A stretch of DNA of 64,000 nt. Origin: a virus (Duplodnaviria > Caudoviricetes). Below are positions 3,237-23,159 of this stretch, in pieces. The stretch is from positions 1 to 64,000 of the IMG/VR virus record IMGVR_UViG_3300037755_000349, one strand, 5' to 3'. Made by a program: the position numbers and the translations under genes. The notes under the pieces were generated by a model. That model was not told where the DNA came from and did no database searches. It saw only the letters and a program-made list of their open reading frames with translations. Position 1 is the stretch's first letter. Every line of letters begins with the position of its first letter.

Positions 3237-3782
3237 TCATCTGTCCCACGTCATCACGCGTATGCGTGACTTGGCTTGCGTCACGTACTTCTCGACGGTG
3301 TGAATCGACAGGCCGAGTTTTTCGGCCACCTCTTCGTAGGACATGCCATCGCGCTTGTGCGCGAGCAGTACTGCGGCATGCGTGGGCGGGAGTTGCGCCA
3401 CTGCCCTATCGATCTGCTGCTGGAGATTTAATCGATCCGCTATATCGTCCGGCACTACCTGCGAAGGATGTTCGTCCCATCCCTTCAGGACGTTGCCATC
3501 AGCATCGATCAACTCACCTCGTTGATCGCGTTTGAACCACTGGCTCTCGTGCTCGACCTCGATACGAAAGTCGCACAGCACATGCGATGCAATGCCGTAC
3601 AGATAGGCGAGTGGCTTGTGCACGACTTTCTCGTCATCCAGTCGCAGCAATCGCAGGTACACCTCCTGCGCCAAGTCATTCACATCTTGCGGTTGACGCA
3701 AGCGGCGCATCAAGTAGCGATGCAATTCGCGGCGATATCGTCCGAACATCGAAGCGGCAAATTTTCTAACCAGAGTTTCCAT
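3237..3782 (-). CDS. ECF (sigma-70 group 4) sigma factor, FecI-like
   Basis: Region 2 (DVNDLAQEVYLRLL, AYLYGIASH) and region 4 (LPPTHAAVLLAHKRDGMSYEEVAEKLGLSIHTVEKYVTQA); GAGGT RBS upstream. Confidence 0.93.
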   Translation of the reverse strand: METLVRKFAASMFGRYRRELHRYLMRRLRQPQDVNDLAQEVYLRLLRLDDEKVVHKPLAYLYGIASHVLCDFRIEVEHESQWFKRDQRGELIDADGNVLKGWDEHPSQVVPDDIADRLNLQQQIDRAVAQLPPTHAAVLLAHKRDGMSYEEVAEKLGLSIHTVEKYVTQAKSRIRVMTWDR

Positions 3783-3993
3783 GGGGGTACACCTCAAAGA
3801 GACGTTGCCTGCGAGCGTTGTAGACGGCGATCACCCCGTCCGTGTCCCGATCTATTTGTCCTCCGTTCTCGACGGCGCGCTGCGCCTGGTTTTGCCATTC
3901 ACTGCCAAGCCGCACCAGGGGAACATCGATGATCGAACCGGTGTAGACGAAGCCCTGGTAACGGCGGCGGTTATTGACTCTTAATCGGTCCAT
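3766..3993 (-). CDS. Hypothetical protein
   Basis: GGAGG RBS; overlaps the sigma start by 17 bp. Confidence 0.5.
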   Translation of the reverse strand: MDRLRVNNRRRYQGFVYTGSIIDVPLVRLGSEWQNQAQRAVENGGQIDRDTDGVIAVYNARRQRLFEVYPHGNSG

Positions 3994-11532: not shown

Positions 11533-11931
11533 TTGAAAAATCTAACAGTCAATCAGATCGACAAGCATTTAGAGTTTCTCCAGAACGAGGCGAAGCGCCT
11601 TACGTCGATGGGCCAGCGATGGGCCGACATTCGAGCAGAGCACTACACTCCGATCATCGAGATACTGCGCCAGATTCGGCAGGACAAGCAGATGCGTGGC
11701 CTGAACGATGCGCCGATCGTGGAGTATCCGCCGATCAAGAGCGCGGCCCACGCCGGTTCCGCTGGTGGGACTGGTTCTAGCGCGCGCCCCGACCAGGCCG
11801 CGCTCGATGCGGCGCCGGAGCTGGTGGGCAAGAAAGCGCTGGTGCTCTACTTCGAGACTCAGCAGGACGTGGAGGATTTCATCGACCTGTACCAGCAGGT
11901 GCATCCGAAAGTGCGGACGGTGCAGCTATGA
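11533..11931 (+). CDS. Hypothetical protein
   Basis: GGAGG RBS before TTG; ATGA-coupled stop. Confidence 0.55.
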   Translation: MKNLTVNQIDKHLEFLQNEAKRLTSMGQRWADIRAEHYTPIIEILRQIRQDKQMRGLNDAPIVEYPPIKSAAHAGSAGGTGSSARPDQAALDAAPELVGKKALVLYFETQQDVEDFIDLYQQVHPKVRTVQL

Positions 11932-12166
11932 ACGCGTGTACCTGTGGCCACGCTCCCGAGGAGCATGGCGGCGATCCAAAGCACCCCGGCTCGACCGCGT
12001 GCCAAATAGAAGGATGCGATTGCATCGCTTACGATGAGGAAGAGGGCGACGGATGGGAGGATGAGCAAGCCACACACGGCTACGGCGATGACGAGTTCCC
12101 GTTCGGCCCATAGGTTATGCACATCAACAACCAGGAGCGAACGTTAGGGCGACGGTGCAGCTATGA
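11916..12166 (+). repeat. 16-bp exact direct repeat GACGGTGCAGCTATGA
   Basis: Copies at 11916-11931 and 12151-12166 flank the 11928-12113 gene. Confidence 0.85.
11928..12113 (+). CDS. Small Zn-binding protein with acidic tail ending EFPFGP
   Basis: CTCGH..EH..CQIEGCDC followed by a D/E-rich tail. Confidence 0.6.
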   Translation: MNACTCGHAPEEHGGDPKHPGSTACQIEGCDCIAYDEEEGDGWEDEQATHGYGDDEFPFGP

Positions 12167-12186: not shown

Positions 12187-12340
12187 ATGAATGGTAACGA
12201 GACAATTGTGGACGGGCTGTTCGCCATAGCGGCGTCACTTGATGGTGTGGCGAGGGCTATTAGCAAGCTCGGGCTTGCGGAAGCATCAACGCCGATGGGC
12301 GACTCTGCAAATTTCTGAGGTCGTCAAGCACGACACATGA
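12187..12340 (+). pseudogene. Probably frameshifted small gene
   Basis: ATG 12187 frame stops at 12318, while another frame runs on to a TGA that is ATGA-coupled to 12337. Confidence 0.3.
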
Positions 12341-12609
12341 ACACCGAAGACTTCAAAGCCAGCTACCTGGAGCGCCTTATCAAGCGACTGGTCGACGACG
12401 GCGGCCAGCCCACGCCCGAGGCCGAGAGCATCGCGACCGAGCTGTACAGCCACTGCCCGCGCTTCGACATGGCGGAGGAGTACCAGCAAGATCCCGAGGC
12501 CGCGGCCGACGTTGCGTATGAGGACTGGGAGGAGGCCGACGATTTGGACGAGGATGACGAGTGGGCCGGCGACGAGGATCAGGAGGAGAACGAGTTTCCG
12601 TTCGGATAA
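12337..12609 (+). CDS. Highly acidic small protein ending EFPFG
   Basis: C-terminal half dominated by D/E. Confidence 0.6.
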   Translation: MNTEDFKASYLERLIKRLVDDGGQPTPEAESIATELYSHCPRFDMAEEYQQDPEAAADVAYEDWEEADDLDEDDEWAGDEDQEENEFPFG

Positions 12610-13070: not shown

Positions 13071-13339
13071 ACCGCCGTCAATTCCTTGCCGGCCTGGGCG
13101 CCGGCCTCGCCACGATCGCGATCACGACCAGGCTCGCCACCACGGAGCTGCTGCCGAAGAACATCACTGCGCGGTGGGATCTCGAACGCGATACAGCCAC
13201 CATCGAGATAAGCGGGACCGATCAGTATGGCAACCGGATCGAGGAGACTATTCGGGTATCGTCTGAGCAAGTGGAAAATGGCGGCGAGATCCGGATGAAG
13301 CGTTTCAAGATGATCGACACCGTGGTGGCTGGCGCATGA
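13067..13339 (+). CDS. Tat-like leader plus fragment resembling structural protein 22476-23159
   Basis: MNRRQFL leader; TATIEISGTDQYGNRIEE vs TATVTIVGTDVYGSLMTE. Confidence 0.65.
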   Translation: MNRRQFLAGLGAGLATIAITTRLATTELLPKNITARWDLERDTATIEISGTDQYGNRIEETIRVSSEQVENGGEIRMKRFKMIDTVVAGA

Positions 13340-13665
13340 ACCGTCGAGGATTCCTCGCTGCCGCCGTCTCGGCCGCGCTGGCGCCGAAGGCCCTGATCCA
13401 GCCAGGCGTGCAGGTCTTCGAGACCGTGGCCATGGCGCCGGCGATCGCTGGTGACTTCGAGATTAGTTCGCTGCGTTACGCGGCGACGGAGCGATACAGC
13501 AATGCATTGATTGCCCCGAGTGTTTTCCGCGATCAGCTCCTCGATGGGCTCAACGAAGTATTTAGAAAGGCGCATGCCGAGCACGAACCAGGTGAGTGGG
13601 AAAAGCTGTTCGCGATCGAGGCGGATCAGGAGCCGCCAACAGAGTGGGCGAAGTTATCAACATAG
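13336..13665 (+). CDS. Tat-like leader plus permuted major-capsid C- and N-terminal segments
   Basis: MNRRGFL leader; GDFEISSLRYAATERYS and FRDQLLDGLNEVF match the capsid termini. Confidence 0.7.
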   Translation: MNRRGFLAAAVSAALAPKALIQPGVQVFETVAMAPAIAGDFEISSLRYAATERYSNALIAPSVFRDQLLDGLNEVFRKAHAEHEPGEWEKLFAIEADQEPPTEWAKLST

Positions 13666-13673
13666 GGGTGCGT

Positions 13674-14096
13674 ATGAAGTTCGATCCTCAGTCCTTTCGT
13701 GAGCGAGTGGATGCGCTCTTCGATCACGCCGACAACGGCATGCCGAGCGCGTACTTCGAGATCCCCGACACGGCGAACGACTGGCAACCGATGCGCGTGC
13801 ACTATCACGTCATTGCGTTCGCGGCCGAGAGCGCGGACATCGCGGCAGCTCGCGTGTTCCAGGAAGTGCAGAAGCTGCGCGCCACCGTGCCCGGCCTGGC
13901 CTGGCTCTTCTGGCGCAACGATCCGCGCATGACTTCCGAGTTCGACACGAGCACCGAGGGGATGGCCGAGGCGCAGATCGAGGACATGGAGCCGTGCTGG
14001 TTCAGGGTGAGAGTGCGCATTGCCGTGCCGAGAGGCGACTGGACGCAGGTCGAGCACGACCAGACGGAAGCGACGCGCATCCTGCTGACGGACTGA
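13674..14096 (+). CDS. Hypothetical protein
   Basis: AGGGG RBS; TGATG-coupled to the next gene. Confidence 0.6.
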   Translation: MKFDPQSFRERVDALFDHADNGMPSAYFEIPDTANDWQPMRVHYHVIAFAAESADIAAARVFQEVQKLRATVPGLAWLFWRNDPRMTSEFDTSTEGMAEAQIEDMEPCWFRVRVRIAVPRGDWTQVEHDQTEATRILLTD

Positions 14097-14398
14097 TGTT
14101 CGCGTCGATCATCAGAGAGCGGCTCCTCGCCGGACTCAATGACGTTTTTGGCATGCAGTACAAGGCAACCGAGCGATATCAATTCGGATGGCATAGGGAC
14201 GCGTGGGCTGGTGCGCTGCCAGTACCGACCTGGGAGCATTGTCTGCTCTGCCATCGAGAGACCCCGCATCTCGGCCATTGTGTCTATACAGCTTGGCATC
14301 CAAGCGGCAATGGCATCGCCGATCGCATGGAGGCTTACGGGCTCGACATCACGAATCCCGAGCATGTGCGCGAGTTCTCGGACGCGATGAAAAACTGA
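14096..14398 (+). CDS. Chimera of capsid termini and the scaffold C-terminal motif
   Basis: GLNDVFGMQYKATERYQFGW and MEAYGLDITNPEHVREF. Confidence 0.7.
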   Translation: MFASIIRERLLAGLNDVFGMQYKATERYQFGWHRDAWAGALPVPTWEHCLLCHRETPHLGHCVYTAWHPSGNGIADRMEAYGLDITNPEHVREFSDAMKN

Positions 14399-15059: not shown

Positions 15060-17600
15060 ATGCCCAAGCCATACAGCTCCACGCTCGTCGAACTGTCGCC
15101 CGAGGAGCCGCGCCCCTCGATGCAGCCGGACGGCTCGCGCATCACGCGCAACGGTGACGGCACCATCACCATCGAAGGCCAGCAGCAGGCCGGTCCGCGT
15201 ATCCCTGTCGAGGGCGACTTCGACGAGAATTTGGCGCCGTACTTCACCGCCGGCGAACGGCAATTCGTCGCTGAGCAGCTCATCGAGTACTCGCGCGTGG
15301 ATATCGAGTCGCGCGCCGACTGGGAGCTGAAGGAGGAGCGCTGCCTGGAGATGCTCGGGATCAAGGACATCCCGCCAGAGCGAGATGAGTCGCCAGGCTT
15401 CCATAAGGTCACGCATCCCATGCTCGTTGAGGCGTGCGTGCAGTTCCAGGCGCGTGCGATTGCAGAGTTCTACCCGGCCACCGGCCCGGTGAAGTGCACC
15501 CCAATCGGCAAGCGCAGCCGCCGACGCATTGAGCAGGCCGATCGCGTCGAGACTTTCATGAACTACTACCTGACCGGGATCGACGCCGGTTACTTTCCGG
15601 ACACCGACCAGATGTTGCTGTACCTGCCGATGTCAGGCAGCGCATTCCGCAAGTGCTCGCCGGATTGGCGCACCGGCCTGCCGCAGCTCAGGTACGTGAA
15701 GGCCACGAATTTCATCGCGCCGTACTCGGGCTTGTCGCTGGACACAATGCCGCGCTATGCACACCGCTACACGATGAGCGGCCTGGATATTCAGCGCTCG
15801 ATCGACCGCGGCATGTTCTACGACGTGAACCTGCAACCCCCTGCGATGGGAGAGGCGCGGCACTCGCGCACGGAGGACACCGCGGATTTCCGCGAGATGG
15901 TGATGCACGAGGACGATCGGCTGTACAACATCCTCGAATATCACATCGAGATGCCGCTCTCCTCCCCCGAGCTGCCGGAGCACGAGGATGGCGCCACGCT
16001 GCCGTACATCATCCTGGTCGAGGAGACGAATCGCGAGATCCTCCTGATGCGGCGCAACTGGAAGCAGATGGATGAGCAGCGCCGTAAGCGCATTTGGTTC
16101 TCTCACTATCGGTTCTTGCCCGGCCTGGGCTTCTACGGCTTCGGCTTTCCGCACGTCATCGGCTCGCTCGGCCGCGCCGCCTCGGGCGCCGTGAACGCGC
16201 TGCTCGACTCCGCGCTGATGGCGAATCTGCAAGGCGGCTTCAAGACGAAGGAGGCGAAGAACAGCGCGAAGGAATACCGGCTTACCCCTGGCGTGTGGAC
16301 CGATGTAGACATGGCCTACGACGAGATCTCGAAGGCGTTCTACACCCCGCCTTTCCGTGAGCCGAGCCCGGCCCTGTTCCAGCTCCTCGATCGCCTGGTG
16401 GCCGCCGGCCAGCGCTTCGCCTCGACCACGGAGGTGATGGTCGGGGATGCCGACAACCGCGGCCCGGTGGGCACGACGGTGGCGCTGATCGAGGAAAGCT
16501 CGCGCGTCTATACCGCGATCCACAAGCGCATGCACAACAGCGCGGGCGAAGAGTTCCGCATGCTCTCCGAGTACATCGGGGAGTACATGCCCAACGAGTA
16601 CACCTACGACTTCGACGACCAGACGCGCACGCTGCTGCAAACCGACTTCGATGGCCGCGTCGACGTGGCGCCAGTGTCGGATCCGAACATCTTCAGCTCG
16701 ACACAGCGTATCGCGCTCGCGCAGGCCGTAATCGAGTTGCAGATGCAACGCCCCGAACTGTATCCACCACAGAAAGTGATCGCCGCGCACCGGCGCCTGC
16801 TGGAAGCGCTGCGCGTGCCAGATCTCGATGAGGTGGCGCCCGAGATGGACATGCCGAAGTTCATCGACGCGGTGAGCGAGAACGGTTTGATGCTGGTCGG
16901 CAAGGGCACGCGTGCATTCGAGTATCAGGATCACCAGTCGCACATGCTGATCCACCAGAACGGTTTGCAATGGGCGATGGCCGCGAACCAGGAACCCGAG
17001 CAGCAGCAGCAGATCGCCGCGGCGTTCATGGCCCACATCCGCGAGCACCAGGCGCTGCACTATCGCTCGATGATCCAGCAGCAGCTCGGCATGCCGTTGC
17101 CGCCGCTGGATGAGGCCGGCATGCCGCAGGAAGTCGATCCGGAGTTCGAGGCCCGGTTGAGCCAGGCCGTCGTGCAGGCGCTGCCGCCCCCGCCCCTGCC
17201 TCCGGGCCAGGAACAGCAGGCCGCGGAAGGCCAGGCCGTGCTCGACAAGACGCAGGCCGCGATCAAGGCGAAGGAGATGGATGCCACCGCCAAGGTCGAG
17301 CGCGACACGATGGCGTTCGTCGGGGAGGAGAAGCGCAAGGAGGTGGCGTTCCAGAACGACCAGCGCCGGCAAAATGTGAATCTTGCGTTCGATCTGTCGC
17401 GCCAGTCCAAAGGCGCGAACCTCCAGGATCGCATCAAGGATCGCCAGGCATCCGCAGACCTGATCCGCACCGGCGTGAAGGGTAAACTGGCGCAGCGGCA
17501 GACCGAAGCGCAGGGTAAGCTGAAGATGAACCTGGCCGCCGAGCAAGCCAAGGCGAAGGCCAAGACGGTGAAAAAGAAAGCCAATGGAGCGTCACGTTGA
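15060..17600 (+). CDS. Portal protein (P22-like) with long C-terminal extension
   Basis: 846 aa; HPMLVEACVQFQARAIAE, GFYGFGF, GTTVALIE..AIHKRMH, VSDPNIFS motifs; first gene of the head operon. Confidence 0.88.
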   Translation: MPKPYSSTLVELSPEEPRPSMQPDGSRITRNGDGTITIEGQQQAGPRIPVEGDFDENLAPYFTAGERQFVAEQLIEYSRVDIESRADWELKEERCLEMLGIKDIPPERDESPGFHKVTHPMLVEACVQFQARAIAEFYPATGPVKCTPIGKRSRRRIEQADRVETFMNYYLTGIDAGYFPDTDQMLLYLPMSGSAFRKCSPDWRTGLPQLRYVKATNFIAPYSGLSLDTMPRYAHRYTMSGLDIQRSIDRGMFYDVNLQPPAMGEARHSRTEDTADFREMVMHEDDRLYNILEYHIEMPLSSPELPEHEDGATLPYIILVEETNREILLMRRNWKQMDEQRRKRIWFSHYRFLPGLGFYGFGFPHVIGSLGRAASGAVNALLDSALMANLQGGFKTKEAKNSAKEYRLTPGVWTDVDMAYDEISKAFYTPPFREPSPALFQLLDRLVAAGQRFASTTEVMVGDADNRGPVGTTVALIEESSRVYTAIHKRMHNSAGEEFRMLSEYIGEYMPNEYTYDFDDQTRTLLQTDFDGRVDVAPVSDPNIFSSTQRIALAQAVIELQMQRPELYPPQKVIAAHRRLLEALRVPDLDEVAPEMDMPKFIDAVSENGLMLVGKGTRAFEYQDHQSHMLIHQNGLQWAMAANQEPEQQQQIAAAFMAHIREHQALHYRSMIQQQLGMPLPPLDEAGMPQEVDPEFEARLSQAVVQALPPPPLPPGQEQQAAEGQAVLDKTQAAIKAKEMDATAKVERDTMAFVGEEKRKEVAFQNDQRRQNVNLAFDLSRQSKGANLQDRIKDRQASADLIRTGVKGKLAQRQTEAQGKLKMNLAAEQAKAKAKTVKKKANGASR

Positions 17601-18121: not shown

Positions 18122-18330
18122 CGGACAACTCGGCGCCCTTCGCGAACCGCGTGCTGAAGTGGGCGGGTGAAGAGCGCCTCGTCCTCATCGAGCACCTGGC
18201 GAAGGGTCTGGCCGAGCGCGAGTACTTGCTGACCTGCGGGCGCATCAAGCAGCTCGATGAGACCATCGCTCACCTGGAGGAGCTGTACCGCAAATACATC
18301 CAAGACGACGAGGAAGATGACGATGAGTAG
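18118..18330 (+). CDS. Small helical head-module protein (start uncertain: CTG 18118 or ATG 17830)
   Basis: EYLLTCGRIKQLDETIAHL resembles the small gene often found before phage GroES; acidic tail. Confidence 0.45.
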   Translation: MTDNSAPFANRVLKWAGEERLVLIEHLAKGLAEREYLLTCGRIKQLDETIAHLEELYRKYIQDDEEDDDE

Positions 18331-18877
18331 ACGAAACAAGGGCCGCGTATTTTCTTTGCCGCCCGTGATCTCGCGACCTGGCCCCTCGATGGGAGACGCG
18401 CACCGCGATCTGCACGATGCCGATCGCCACGTCGATCGCCGGCATGACACGGATGAAAACATCGAGCGATTGATCCGCGAGGCCGACAAGCAGGCCGCGC
18501 TTGAGCCGGTCGATGTGACGAACCTGCCGATGCAGCCGATGTTCTGGCACGTACTGGTCGAGCCGATGCGCGCCTCTGCGAAGATCGGCAGCGGCGTGCT
18601 GTACCAGGCCGATGAGAGCAAGCGAGTCGAGGAGATCCAGACGACAATCGGGCGCCTGGTGGCGATCGGACCTTGCGCGTTTACCGGCAAAACGAATGCC
18701 GGAAACTTCCTCGGCGAAGGGATCGAGCGCGAGAAGTTGATCAACAGATGGGTGATGTACGCCAAGCACACCGGCCAAGAGATCAAGCTGCGCACCGGCC
18801 ACCGATTGCTGCTGCTCAACGACTCCGAGCTGCTCGCATTCGTGGAAAATCCCGAGGATTTCCGGCACTGGCTTTGA
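18323..18877 (+). CDS. groES: GroES/Cpn10-like co-chaperonin
   Basis: PMFWHVLVEP..GSGVLY..GRLVAIGP..WVMYAKHTG..LLLLNDSELLAFVENP. Confidence 0.8.
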   Translation: MSRRNKGRVFSLPPVISRPGPSMGDAHRDLHDADRHVDRRHDTDENIERLIREADKQAALEPVDVTNLPMQPMFWHVLVEPMRASAKIGSGVLYQADESKRVEEIQTTIGRLVAIGPCAFTGKTNAGNFLGEGIEREKLINRWVMYAKHTGQEIKLRTGHRLLLLNDSELLAFVENPEDFRHWL

Positions 18878-19057
18878 TCGAGTTGGGCGTAGGTACGGCC
18901 AAAGAAAGCCGTACTTACGTCGTTCTTATGGGGTTCTTATTGGATAAAAATCCCATAGTTACCCTCACTGATATCAGCCGCGGAGATTAGAAAAGCCTCC
19001 CCTCGTTGCGGAAGATCCTCGCCGCACGTCGTGCAACACACGACAACGAGGAGCAAC

Positions 19058-20200
19058 ATGGCTCGCACACAAACCACTGGCGGCAAGGCAAAGGGGGGCA
19101 AGCAATGGAAGCCGGCCCCGACCGACCAGGAGAAACCTTTCGCTGAGATCGATCTCGGAGCGTCGAAGGACGGCATTCAGCGCATGGCTGACGAGCCCGA
19201 CGAGGATGCCGACGATGATCTGCCTGGTTCCGAAGGCGATGACGGTGAGCAGCCACGTGAGCGGCGCTTCATAGATCGTAGCAAGTCCGTGAGCAAGCGC
19301 CTCGGGCGCATGGAACGCAGCTTCAACCAGCGATTTGCGGATCAGGAAGCTCGATGGCAGCGCCAAGTCGCCGATCTCAAGCGCGAGAACAGTTCGCTAC
19401 GCGTCAATCGCGGGGTAAGCGAAGCCGACCAGGCCGCGCATGACAGCAAGATCGCGGCCTGGCAATCCGAACTCGAAACCGCCTACGAGAAGGGCGACAC
19501 CAAGAAACAAGCCGAGCTGACCACGAAGATTGCTCAGGCACAGGGTGAGTTCGAGTCGAAGAAGCGCGCTGCCATGCTCGGCCAGCAGCAGCACCAGGAC
19601 CGTGACGATCGACGCGATGCCGTCGACCAGCGCGGTGATCCCGACAACCGCGGCAACGGACCGACGCGCGAGGCGCGCAAGTGGATGCGTGCGAATGATG
19701 ACTGGTGGAACGATCCGGAGTTCGAGATCGAGAAGCAGGCCGCCATCGTCATCGACAACCAACTCATCGACGAAGGCTCCGATCCCAACGATCCGGAGCA
19801 CTACGAAGAGCTGCGCGAGCGCCTGCTCGACAAGTTCCCGGACATGGAATCGGAGATTGCGATGCCTAGCGCACGCCGTGGCCGCCGCGATGCGCGCCGC
19901 GATGACGATGAAGACGATGACCTCGACGATGACCGTGGCGATCGCCGCGATCGTCGCGACACGCGTGGCGCCCGCAACGGCAGCACGCGCCGCCCGCCCA
20001 TCCCGGCCTTCGCCGATCGAGGCGCAGATCGAGGTAATCAACCGCGGCGCTCCAACGGTCGCACTGTCACCCTCTCGCGCGCGCAGCGCGAGAACATGAT
20101 CACTTTCGGACTCGATCCGCAGAATGACGATCATGTGAAGGAGTACGCGAAGTCCGCCGAAGAAACGACGCGCGCCTACGCGCGTGAGGGTCGTCACTGA
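19058..20200 (+). CDS. Capsid scaffolding protein
   Basis: Charged coiled-coil; WMRANDDWW..DP..EHYEEL; position between portal and capsid. Confidence 0.7.
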   Translation: MARTQTTGGKAKGGKQWKPAPTDQEKPFAEIDLGASKDGIQRMADEPDEDADDDLPGSEGDDGEQPRERRFIDRSKSVSKRLGRMERSFNQRFADQEARWQRQVADLKRENSSLRVNRGVSEADQAAHDSKIAAWQSELETAYEKGDTKKQAELTTKIAQAQGEFESKKRAAMLGQQQHQDRDDRRDAVDQRGDPDNRGNGPTREARKWMRANDDWWNDPEFEIEKQAAIVIDNQLIDEGSDPNDPEHYEELRERLLDKFPDMESEIAMPSARRGRRDARRDDDEDDDLDDDRGDRRDRRDTRGARNGSTRRPPIPAFADRGADRGNQPRRSNGRTVTLSRAQRENMITFGLDPQNDDHVKEYAKSAEETTRAYAREGRH

Positions 20201-21454: not shown

Positions 21455-22360
21455 ATGATGACGCGTAGTGATTTCCGGAAGCAGCTTCAGGAGGGCCTGA
21501 ATGCTGTTTTCGGTGTTGAGTACAAGCGCCACCCAGAGGAGTGGCGTGCGATCTTCGACGTGGAGAATTCGTCGAAGGCGTTCGAAGAAGACGTGATGGA
21601 AGTGGGCCTGGGTGCCGCTCCCGTCAAGGCCGAGGGTGCCGCGATCGAGTACGACGAAGGGTACGAGACCTACGTCGCGCGCTACCGGCACGACACGATC
21701 GCGCTGGCCTTTGCGATCACCGAGGAAGCTGAAGAGGACAACCTCTACGGCAGCGTCGGCAACCGCATGAGCCGTGCGCTGGCTCGTTCCCTGCAACACA
21801 CCAAGGAAGTGAAGGGCGCGAACATTCTGAACTTCGGATTCGACACCAATTTCCCCGGTGGCGACGGAGTTCCGTTGTTCTCGGCCTCGCATCCGCTTGG
21901 TGGCGGGGGCGTGCTGTCCAACACGTTGGCGACGCCTGCCGATCTGGCCGAAAGCTCGATGGAAGAGCTGATGAACCAGATCAGCGAGTGGACGGACGAT
22001 CGCGGCCTGCCGATGAAGGCCATGATCACGAAGCTCATCATCCCGGTGGAGTTGCAATTCATTGCCGCTCGCCTGTTGATGAGCCCGTACCAGCCGGACA
22101 CGGGCGACAACAACATCAACGCGATCCAGAAACTCGGTGCGATCAGGGACGGCTATGCCGTCAATCACTACCTGACCGATCCCGACGCCTGGTTCTTCAA
22201 GACCGACACTCAGGACGGCTTGAAGCACTTCGTGCGGCGCGCTGTGAAGCGCGGCCTGGAGGGCGACTTCGAGACGGGCAACATGCGCTACAAGGCCAGC
22301 GAGCGGTATTCGCAGGGCTGGTCGAACTGGCGCGGTGCTGCCGGATCTGCGGGGGCCTGA
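21455..22360 (+). CDS. Major capsid protein
   Basis: GGAG RBS; QLQEGLNAVFG, KAEGAAIEYD, DGVPLFSASHP, YLTDPDAWF, RYKASERYS motifs. Confidence 0.88.
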   Translation: MMTRSDFRKQLQEGLNAVFGVEYKRHPEEWRAIFDVENSSKAFEEDVMEVGLGAAPVKAEGAAIEYDEGYETYVARYRHDTIALAFAITEEAEEDNLYGSVGNRMSRALARSLQHTKEVKGANILNFGFDTNFPGGDGVPLFSASHPLGGGGVLSNTLATPADLAESSMEELMNQISEWTDDRGLPMKAMITKLIIPVELQFIAARLLMSPYQPDTGDNNINAIQKLGAIRDGYAVNHYLTDPDAWFFKTDTQDGLKHFVRRAVKRGLEGDFETGNMRYKASERYSQGWSNWRGAAGSAGA

Positions 22361-22475: not shown

Positions 22476-23159
22476 ATGTCGCGTCAACTTCTGTCTCGGG
22501 CTACTGATCTTTTCCTCGGCGCCGTCGCCTACGCTCGCGCGTTCTCGGGCAAGTACGGTGCTCCTTTCTCACCCCTCGTCGTCCACAACTTCGGCGCTCC
22601 GATCATCGGGGATGCCGATGGCATCAGTGTGTCGGCGACGATCACCGCACCGGCCTCGGCCGTCATCGGTGGCGCGCTCGCCTCCGGTGGTGTCGCGACG
22701 TTCGACGTGCCGCGCAATGTCGTGGGCGCCTGGACGAACACGGCCACGGTCACGATCGTGGGCACCGATGTGTACGGCTCGCTGATGACCGAGGTCTCGG
22801 CCAGCGGGACCTCGCACACCGGAACCAAGGCGTTCAAGACGGTCACGTCTGTCACGCCGAGCGTCACGGTCACGGGCGCAACATTCGGTACGGGTGACGT
22901 ACTCGGACTGCCCTACCGCGTGGACAAGAACAAACTCATTGCAGCCCGCGCAGGGAACGCGATCGACGCTGGTGTATTCGTGCCGGCGGTGACGACCGAT
23001 CCGGCAACCGGGACCACTGGCGATGTGCGCGGCACGTTCAATCCGGCGGTGACGTTGGACGGCGTCGAGACAATCTCGGTGGTTTTCGAGATCGCGGATC
23101 GCTCTTCCAAAGTCGGGACCTACGGCGTCAAGCAATTCGGTAGCGCCGATAGCGTCTAA
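22476..23159 (+). CDS. Virion structural protein (decoration-like); paralog of 23260-23922
   Basis: Thr/Val/Gly-rich beta protein; DADGIS..PRNV..GTDVYG. Confidence 0.6.
   Translation: MSRQLLSRATDLFLGAVAYARAFSGKYGAPFSPLVVHNFGAPIIGDADGISVSATITAPASAVIGGALASGGVATFDVPRNVVGAWTNTATVTIVGTDVYGSLMTEVSASGTSHTGTKAFKTVTSVTPSVTVTGATFGTGDVLGLPYRVDKNKLIAARAGNAIDAGVFVPAVTTDPATGTTGDVRGTFNPAVTLDGVETISVVFEIADRSSKVGTYGVKQFGSADSV

Follow-up and report, generated by a model that had tools for sequence, protein, structure and literature searches.

Phage mini-proteins that join a twin-arginine-type leader to rearranged copies of major capsid protein segments

A number of small elements are known to dock on an HK97-fold shell or on its scaffold, among them the C-terminal coat-binding helix-turn-helix of the P22 scaffold, the capsid targeting sequence of T4 internal proteins, the cargo-loading peptides of encapsulins, P4 Sid, SaPI CpmB and PICI Ccm, and these systems belong to satellites or to core morphogenesis. 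We know of none among them with a twin-arginine translocation (Tat) leader, and of none that copies capsid segments except Ccm, which is a capsid homolog. TP-J34 Ltp, T4 Imm and Sp, and HK97 gp15 are periplasmic or membrane proteins of superinfection exclusion that act on components of incoming phage, and none of these is, to our knowledge, built from fragments of its own capsid. Here we describe a gene at 13336-13665 (+ strand) of a 64,000-nucleotide stretch of phage DNA, hereafter the window, which spans bases 1-64000 of the virus record IMGVR_UViG_3300037755_000349 (72,067 bp, direct terminal repeats). Its 109-aa product, P0002, carries two segments related to the major capsid protein encoded further downstream (21455-22360, +, 301 aa; Pfam PF25209 Phage_capsid_4, E 1e-11; phrog_371), which we take as the source of the copies. 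Sequence comparisons place P0002 in an undescribed family that combines a Tat-type leader with copies of capsid segments, in which the copy of the capsid N-terminal arm (N-arm) is the constant part.

The open reading frame (ORF) is present as the initial annotation described it, on the + strand and starting MNRRGFL; its start codon shares bases with the stop of the ORF before it (ATGA), and its GC content at third codon positions, 0.70, is gene-like. When the whole window was searched with the capsid by tblastn, the four top non-self matches all fell in two ORFs, P0002 and the one at 14096-14398, with noise starting from E 0.36. Within P0002, residues 22-55 (13399-13500, +) copy the C-terminal P-domain beta-hairpin of the capsid, residues 253-286 (E 5e-4, 15/34 identical, 44%), and residues 58-95 (13507-13620, +) copy the N-arm, capsid 1-37 (E 8e-4, 42% identical). 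A hidden Markov model (HMM) of the capsid family, searched over 1504 stop-to-stop ORFs, all those of the genome and of the related locus L001, recovered P0002 at a full-sequence E of 1.1e-7 over two stretches (hmm 253-287 and 5-40) and its ortholog P0005 at 1.1e-6, while the next unrelated ORF stood at 2.3. The layout of P0002 is capsid 254-287, 8 residues, then capsid 5-40, and P0002 aligns over these two regions with capsids from 65 related phage loci. The identities given in the initial annotation, 11/17 at the capsid C-terminus and 15/32 at the N-terminus, are both correct, and the placing of the C-terminus before the N-terminus is real by tblastn and by the capsid HMM, recurring in an ORF of locus L083 and in the family members P0033 and P0023. 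In the matching stretches third codon positions are 0.2-0.55 identical, that is, saturated, and first and second positions are 0.6-0.7 identical; the retention of the latter while the former are saturated indicates that the copies are old and maintained at the protein level. A recent duplication or an assembly chimera was rejected, given the saturated third positions and the occurrence in many samples. P0002 shares with HK97-fold capsids (PF25209 Phage_capsid_4 and the Mu gpT-like PF10124) homology to capsid 254-287 and 5-40, including the hydrophobic positions, and differs from them in its length of 109 aa, its permuted order, its added export-type leader and the loss of the capsid-invariant Q12 and G20. 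It holds only these two short capsid elements and lacks the rest of the fold (no A-domain, spine helix, E-loop or strand 76-88), and a Pfam search gave no match for it.

The family was collected by an exhaustive hmmsearch of 1.84 billion representatives with an alignment of P0002 and P0005 (E <= 1e-3), which returned 29 matches; three of these, P0010, P0030 and P0034, are repeat proteins and were discarded as false-positive profile matches, and the rest, of 86-276 aa and including P0002 and P0005, share one plan, so that P0002 has about 25 companions. This plan consists of a leader MNRRGFL...AP(K)xLI, a variable middle and a last module (L)LTxAxFRxxLxxGLNxVFxxxYxxxxxWxxLF that corresponds to the first 35-50 residues of the capsid. 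The capsid HMM matched 21/29 of the proteins tested at E < 1e-3 (background of about 1500 ORFs), and mapping onto it showed that the variable middle is a different capsid piece in different members: capsid 47-71, the E-loop, in P0014; 69-101 (up to 120), a P-domain strand, in P0013, P0017 and P0028; 98-131, the spine helix, in P0016, P0019, P0020 and L090b; 131-148, an A-domain motif, in P0005, P0027, P0012 and P0024; 162-198, an A-domain helix and strand, in P0012, P0021, P0035, P0026 and L083b; 240-252, a strand, in P0031 and P0024; and 254-299, the C-terminal hairpin, in P0002, P0033, L083 and P0023. The structural elements are read from an AlphaFold2 model of the capsid built on 87 sequences (predicted local distance difference test, pLDDT, 82; an earlier model from 25 sequences, at pLDDT 49, was left unused), which has the canonical HK97 fold, finds HK97, T5 and gene transfer agent capsids in Foldseek at E about 1e-10, and assigns the pieces copied in the family to single secondary-structure elements; the N-arm is modelled at pLDDT below 50, and no sequence relative of the capsid was found in the PDB. 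In the model, strands 256-271 and 276-289 make up the C-terminal hairpin, within the P-domain.

The two nearest relatives of P0002 illustrate how labile the middle is. P0005, the sole relative returned by a word-indexed protein search and 44% identical to P0002, is encoded at 1837-2184 of L001, an 8.5-kb contig whose portal is 85% identical to that of the window; it keeps the leader and the N-arm copy, and where P0002 has the hairpin it carries DGVPLFSAIHP, identical at 10/11 residues to capsid 137-147. P0009, 48% identical to P0002, has a hairpin piece that is half decayed. Across the family nothing but the leader and the N-arm module is universal, and both are conserved at the protein and not at the DNA level. 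In the N-arm module the hydrophobic positions F7, L11, L15, V18, F19, Y23, W30, L33 and F34 are kept family-wide, and the capsid-invariant Q12, G20, R25 and R31 are lost in nearly all members, G20 being replaced in 21/22.

The initial annotation took the reversed order to rebuild a surface formed where the capsid termini meet, such that hairpin and N-terminal segment would co-fold into a circularly permuted mini-domain that could, for example, cap capsomer edges or bind scaffold. Some of the structural evidence is compatible with this, as the hairpin (256-289) lies in the P-domain of the model, and in the HK97 fold the P-domain is likewise where the chain leads once past the N-arm and E-loop. 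The three proteins named above share the C-to-N order, and one of them, P0023, has retained the hairpin, N-arm, E-loop, strand and the beginning of the spine helix, so that little of the P-domain is missing while the A-domain is absent. A rebuilt surface fits this long and probably ancestral protein, but is not supported as the function of P0002, which has neither strand 76-88 nor the spine helix; the structural model of the mini-protein, put forward as a check on the idea, is not confident (Atlas, pLDDT 0.47). The relatives speak against it as well, with the hairpin replaced in P0005, half decayed in P0009 and exchanged for another capsid piece in most members. The expectation that homologs would conserve the capsid-like residues is borne out at the hydrophobic positions of the N-arm and fails for the hairpin piece in P0005 and P0009. 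We consider a permuted mini-domain distinctly unlikely.

How the permuted order arose is suggested by the same P0023 (276 aa), in which a leader is followed by capsid 268-299 (E 8e-10) and, after a linker of 4 residues, by at least capsid 1-97 (E 3e-15). Read-through of the junction between tandem genes is the classical route to circular permutation, and this layout resembles read-through of a tandem capsid junction, which would explain why C-terminal pieces precede N-terminal ones. On these sequence grounds the order in the family probably arose by tandem capsid duplication, whose product would have been read through and then trimmed and rearranged into mosaics. The likeness to the duplication model lies in P0002, with its C-terminal and then N-terminal segment in one frame, and in P0023, which is like an intact two-copy junction; the difference is that most members keep fragments only and do not retain the full fold elements of the parent. 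The N-arm modules of the mini-proteins have derived states in common that are never seen in capsids, which points to a single origin of that module. Other orders, namely capsid 136-147, 39-68, 158-178 and 1-30 in P0027, capsid 237-250, 136-147 and 1-45 in P0024, and the joining of NMRY to VHREVAMGF at a shared RY in L083, are not derivable from two copies by deletion alone and must reflect subsequent rearrangement or renewed capture. Capture at a later stage would agree with P0013 and P0023, whose middle pieces resemble the capsid more closely than their N-arm modules do.

The other constant part is the Tat-type leader, MNRRGFLAAAVSAALAPKALIQP, residues 1-23 of P0002 (13336-13404, +), recognised by family conservation and by its pattern. 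Over 27 family members F6 never varies and R3 and R4 are retained in at least 90%, and the MNRRGFL of P0002 fits the twin-arginine motif (S/T)RRxFL(K). The leaders of P0002 and P0005 agree at 19/21 residues and at only 9/22 third codon positions; since protein identity is high while synonymous sites differ, the leader is a selected peptide and not a DNA site, and the alternative of a conserved DNA element was rejected. The family resembles Tat signal peptides (TIGR01409 / PF10518) in the N-terminal RRxFL, an Ala-rich, mildly hydrophobic stretch and a basic residue, and TIGR01409 matches 11/27 members at E <= 0.1 (P0005 scores 14.5 bits, under the 16.7 cut-off). It differs in its passenger, a string of capsid fragments and not a cofactor enzyme, and the leader is a putative Tat signal. 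By eye, the cleavage region of L083 reads ALA/E, and an AxA-type motif is not uniform across the family. As a separate observation, capsids of this family start (M)MNRxxF (21455-21475 in the window), which is similar to the MNRRGF of the leader (13336-13356); the similarity may be fortuitous, or may indicate that the mini-gene took its 5' end, too, from the capsid gene.

Members of the family lie on phage contigs, within a block of small genes upstream of a portal-sized gene, and their distribution is sporadic. Among ten near-complete related genomes (capsids 61-72% identical), the family profile matched the capsid only and found no N-arm-bearing member; one of the ten, G001, also gave a leader-only match, to its ORF of leader plus capsid fragment. 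A tblastn search of 50,697 phage records with P0002 and P0013 found no mini-gene, P0013 matching only capsids, and PHROGs v4 had no match for P0002 and one weak match (E 0.009) among 27 members; neither PADLOC nor Pfam had a match for the family. A scan of IMG/VR with leader patterns found nothing, its portal scan one fragment, and a metagenome scan at least four loci, with L083 the useful one among the matches listed. When 80 related capsid loci were searched against themselves for extra capsid fragments, none was found: the BLAST matches were antisense-of-self noise, the reversed-sequence control giving more matches than the real query, and an HMM search agreed. Such a patchy occurrence, along with a variable piece that decays or is swapped between close relatives, is what might be expected of functionless, decaying remnants of capsid gene duplications. 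Numerous independent samples nevertheless show unbroken reading frames, translational coupling of the genes is seen in L001 as well as in the window, and about 27 clusters sharing only about 30% identity conserve the positions of the leader and N-arm in spite of saturated third codon positions. Protein-level conservation over that range makes decay without function unlikely, and we regard the remnant explanation as very improbable.

We tentatively infer that P0002 is a Tat-targeted mimic of the capsid N-arm, probably with the role of an accessory or conflict gene, a reading that we find plausible if somewhat short of probable. The leader would direct P0002 towards the Tat translocase and the inner membrane or, by putative export, across that membrane, and the N-arm copy would dock on whatever the N-arm usually binds, be it the scaffold C-terminus, neighbouring capsid subunits or internal proteins; docking on the normal partner is suggested by the hydrophobic face of the capsid N-arm being kept in the copy. 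P0002 would in this way be a mislocalised imitation of, or competitor for, an interface used in head assembly. Between window and L001 the mini-protein has diverged far more than the portal (44% against 85% identity), and fast evolution together with sporadic distribution suggests an accessory role in conflict, such as shutting out related phages or serving a host sensor as decoy, and not a core assembly step. Like the superinfection-exclusion proteins cited above, the mini-proteins are small, sporadic, fast-evolving phage accessory proteins with export signals, putative ones in this family; the two groups have no sequence relation, and the parallel is a functional analogy only.

Several observations weigh against the mimic reading. 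P0002 itself has no match to TIGR01409 or PF10518 at E <= 1 and so falls below the Tat HMM thresholds, and its signal peptidase site, judged by eye (...AALAPKA/LIQP), lacks a clean AxA. Given that the capsid itself starts (M)MNRxxF, part of the likeness of the leader could be inherited and not functional. It is not clear that the copied pieces match the phage's own capsid best, and since the variable piece decays in close relatives the N-arm could be the sole basis of any mimicry. Nor is it obvious what an element of the capsid interior would target in the periplasm. Finally, P0005, P0018 and P0029 share P(I/M)PF..PS(P/V)(A/S)L, which is like PPFREPSPALF of the window's portal (about aa 430-440), and this portal-like motif is not significant with a portal HMM (E 0.2-0.4); one tblastn match, to the portal region of L012, reached E 6e-4.

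The head-gene setting bears on a second possibility, that the mini-protein is a cytoplasmic helper of head assembly, in which the scaffold would bind the N-arm copy and the protein would be recruited to procapsids or tether them (for instance at the membrane through the leader), or be loaded as cargo, with the neighbouring protein P0003 as partner by way of its scaffold-like C-terminus. The window holds a large terminase (912-2609) and a small divergent block holding an ECF (extracytoplasmic function)-type sigma factor (3237-3797, -; Sigma70_r2 and r4), followed by a run of small ORFs on the + strand at about 6-15 kb; no sigma-70-like promoter was found on the + strand between 5.3 and 19.2 kb. 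Within this run, two small and very acidic proteins (11928-12113 and 12337-12609, +) both end in EFPFG(P), which may be a shared C-terminal docking motif and which resembles the acidic tip of the single-stranded DNA-binding protein (SSB) tail. Immediately upstream of the portal-sized gene (15060-17600, +, 846 aa; labelled from its size and position, Pfam and PHROGs searches of the protein having given no match), and in the same orientation, is the P0002 cassette. Beyond the portal-sized gene come a GroES-like gene (18257-18877, +, 206 aa), whose C-terminal half weakly matches GroES/Cpn10 (Pfam E 0.007; phrog_3188) and which is present too in L001 and L083, and a putative scaffolding protein (19031-20200, +, 389 aa, highly charged), a role assigned from position and composition. 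The latter has a conserved C-terminal motif, M..FGLDP.N..H.KEY, found also in its L087 and L083 homologs. The capsid gene is followed by that of P0007, a 227-aa head-module protein (22476-23159, +). The cultured phages with the most similar capsids (51-56%) are Pag-Yong1/MinM2, DSL-LC04, the Roseobacter phages CRP-901/902 and pelagiphage HTVC023P.

The assembly-helper explanation gains from this arrangement, as the terminator scan found no terminator-like site from about 12.74 kb to 18.9 kb, none separates P0002 from the portal-sized gene, the GroES-like gene belongs to the same unit, and P0003 has a motif like the putative scaffold C-terminus. It loses from the absence of any N-arm-bearing member in the ten near-complete genomes, which have the same head genes, so that the protein cannot be a core step; from its rate of evolution relative to the portal; and from the invariant RRxF leader, which a cytoplasmic role would not need. 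On balance we judge such a helper unlikely.

Capsid fragments behind a leader are not the only copied head-protein segments at this locus. P0004, directly upstream of P0002 (13067-13339, +), joins a Tat-type leader (TIGR01409 18.4 bits, above the 16.7 cut-off) to a fragment of P0007: its residues 29-86 match window 22707-22853 (E 1.3e-4) and the homologous proteins of L007 and L012. The hydrophobic stretch of P0004 also aligns in part with P0007 (22476-23159). P0003 (14096-14398, +, 100 aa) is a mosaic of a capsid N-arm piece, the capsid C-terminal strand, a Cys/His-rich stretch (CxxC...H...C) and a scaffold-like end; residues 1-23 match capsid 2-24 and residues 8-40 match capsid 265-295, the last capsid strand lying at residues 20-40, and residues 76-95 match window 20090-20149 (DRMEAYGLDITNPEHVREF against ENMITFGLDPQNDDHVKEY of the putative scaffold). 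Its L001 homolog keeps the strand and scaffold-like pieces without the N-arm piece and matches the ends of scaffold-like proteins in L029, L030, L038 and L069 (E 1.5e-4). The gene between P0002 and P0003 (13674-14096) showed no specific link to the mini-protein family. Other ORFs of leader plus capsid fragment without the N-arm occur in L083, L090, G001 and L098; those at L083 8700-9119, L090 13914-14198 and L098 57-482 (minus strand) join a twin-arginine leader to capsid A-domain or spine-helix pieces. The theme is thus wider than the N-arm-bearing family.

A further possibility is a cassette of capture and display in which segments of the phages' own virion proteins (capsid, post-capsid protein, scaffold end and possibly portal) would be placed behind a Tat leader as exported or membrane-held decoys. 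The self-peptides could then disarm host sensors that detect conserved motifs of head proteins, or capture internal proteins ejected by superinfecting relatives, and the variable piece would be exchanged as the conflict moves on. We hold this to be a minor possibility next to the Tat-targeted N-arm mimic.

If the mimic reading is true, phages make small export-tagged proteins from shuffled pieces of their own capsid, a self-mimicry undescribed for any virus, and the capsid N-arm would be a head-protein interface worth targeting or protecting. The family is moreover a natural set of minimal capsid-derived peptides, each corresponding to one secondary-structure element, which could be used as probes of HK97-fold assembly, as cargo or docking tags, and as leads to factors of host or phage that read capsid motifs. 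Whatever its function, the family shows how a tandem capsid duplication, its probable origin, can be whittled down to a new small gene.
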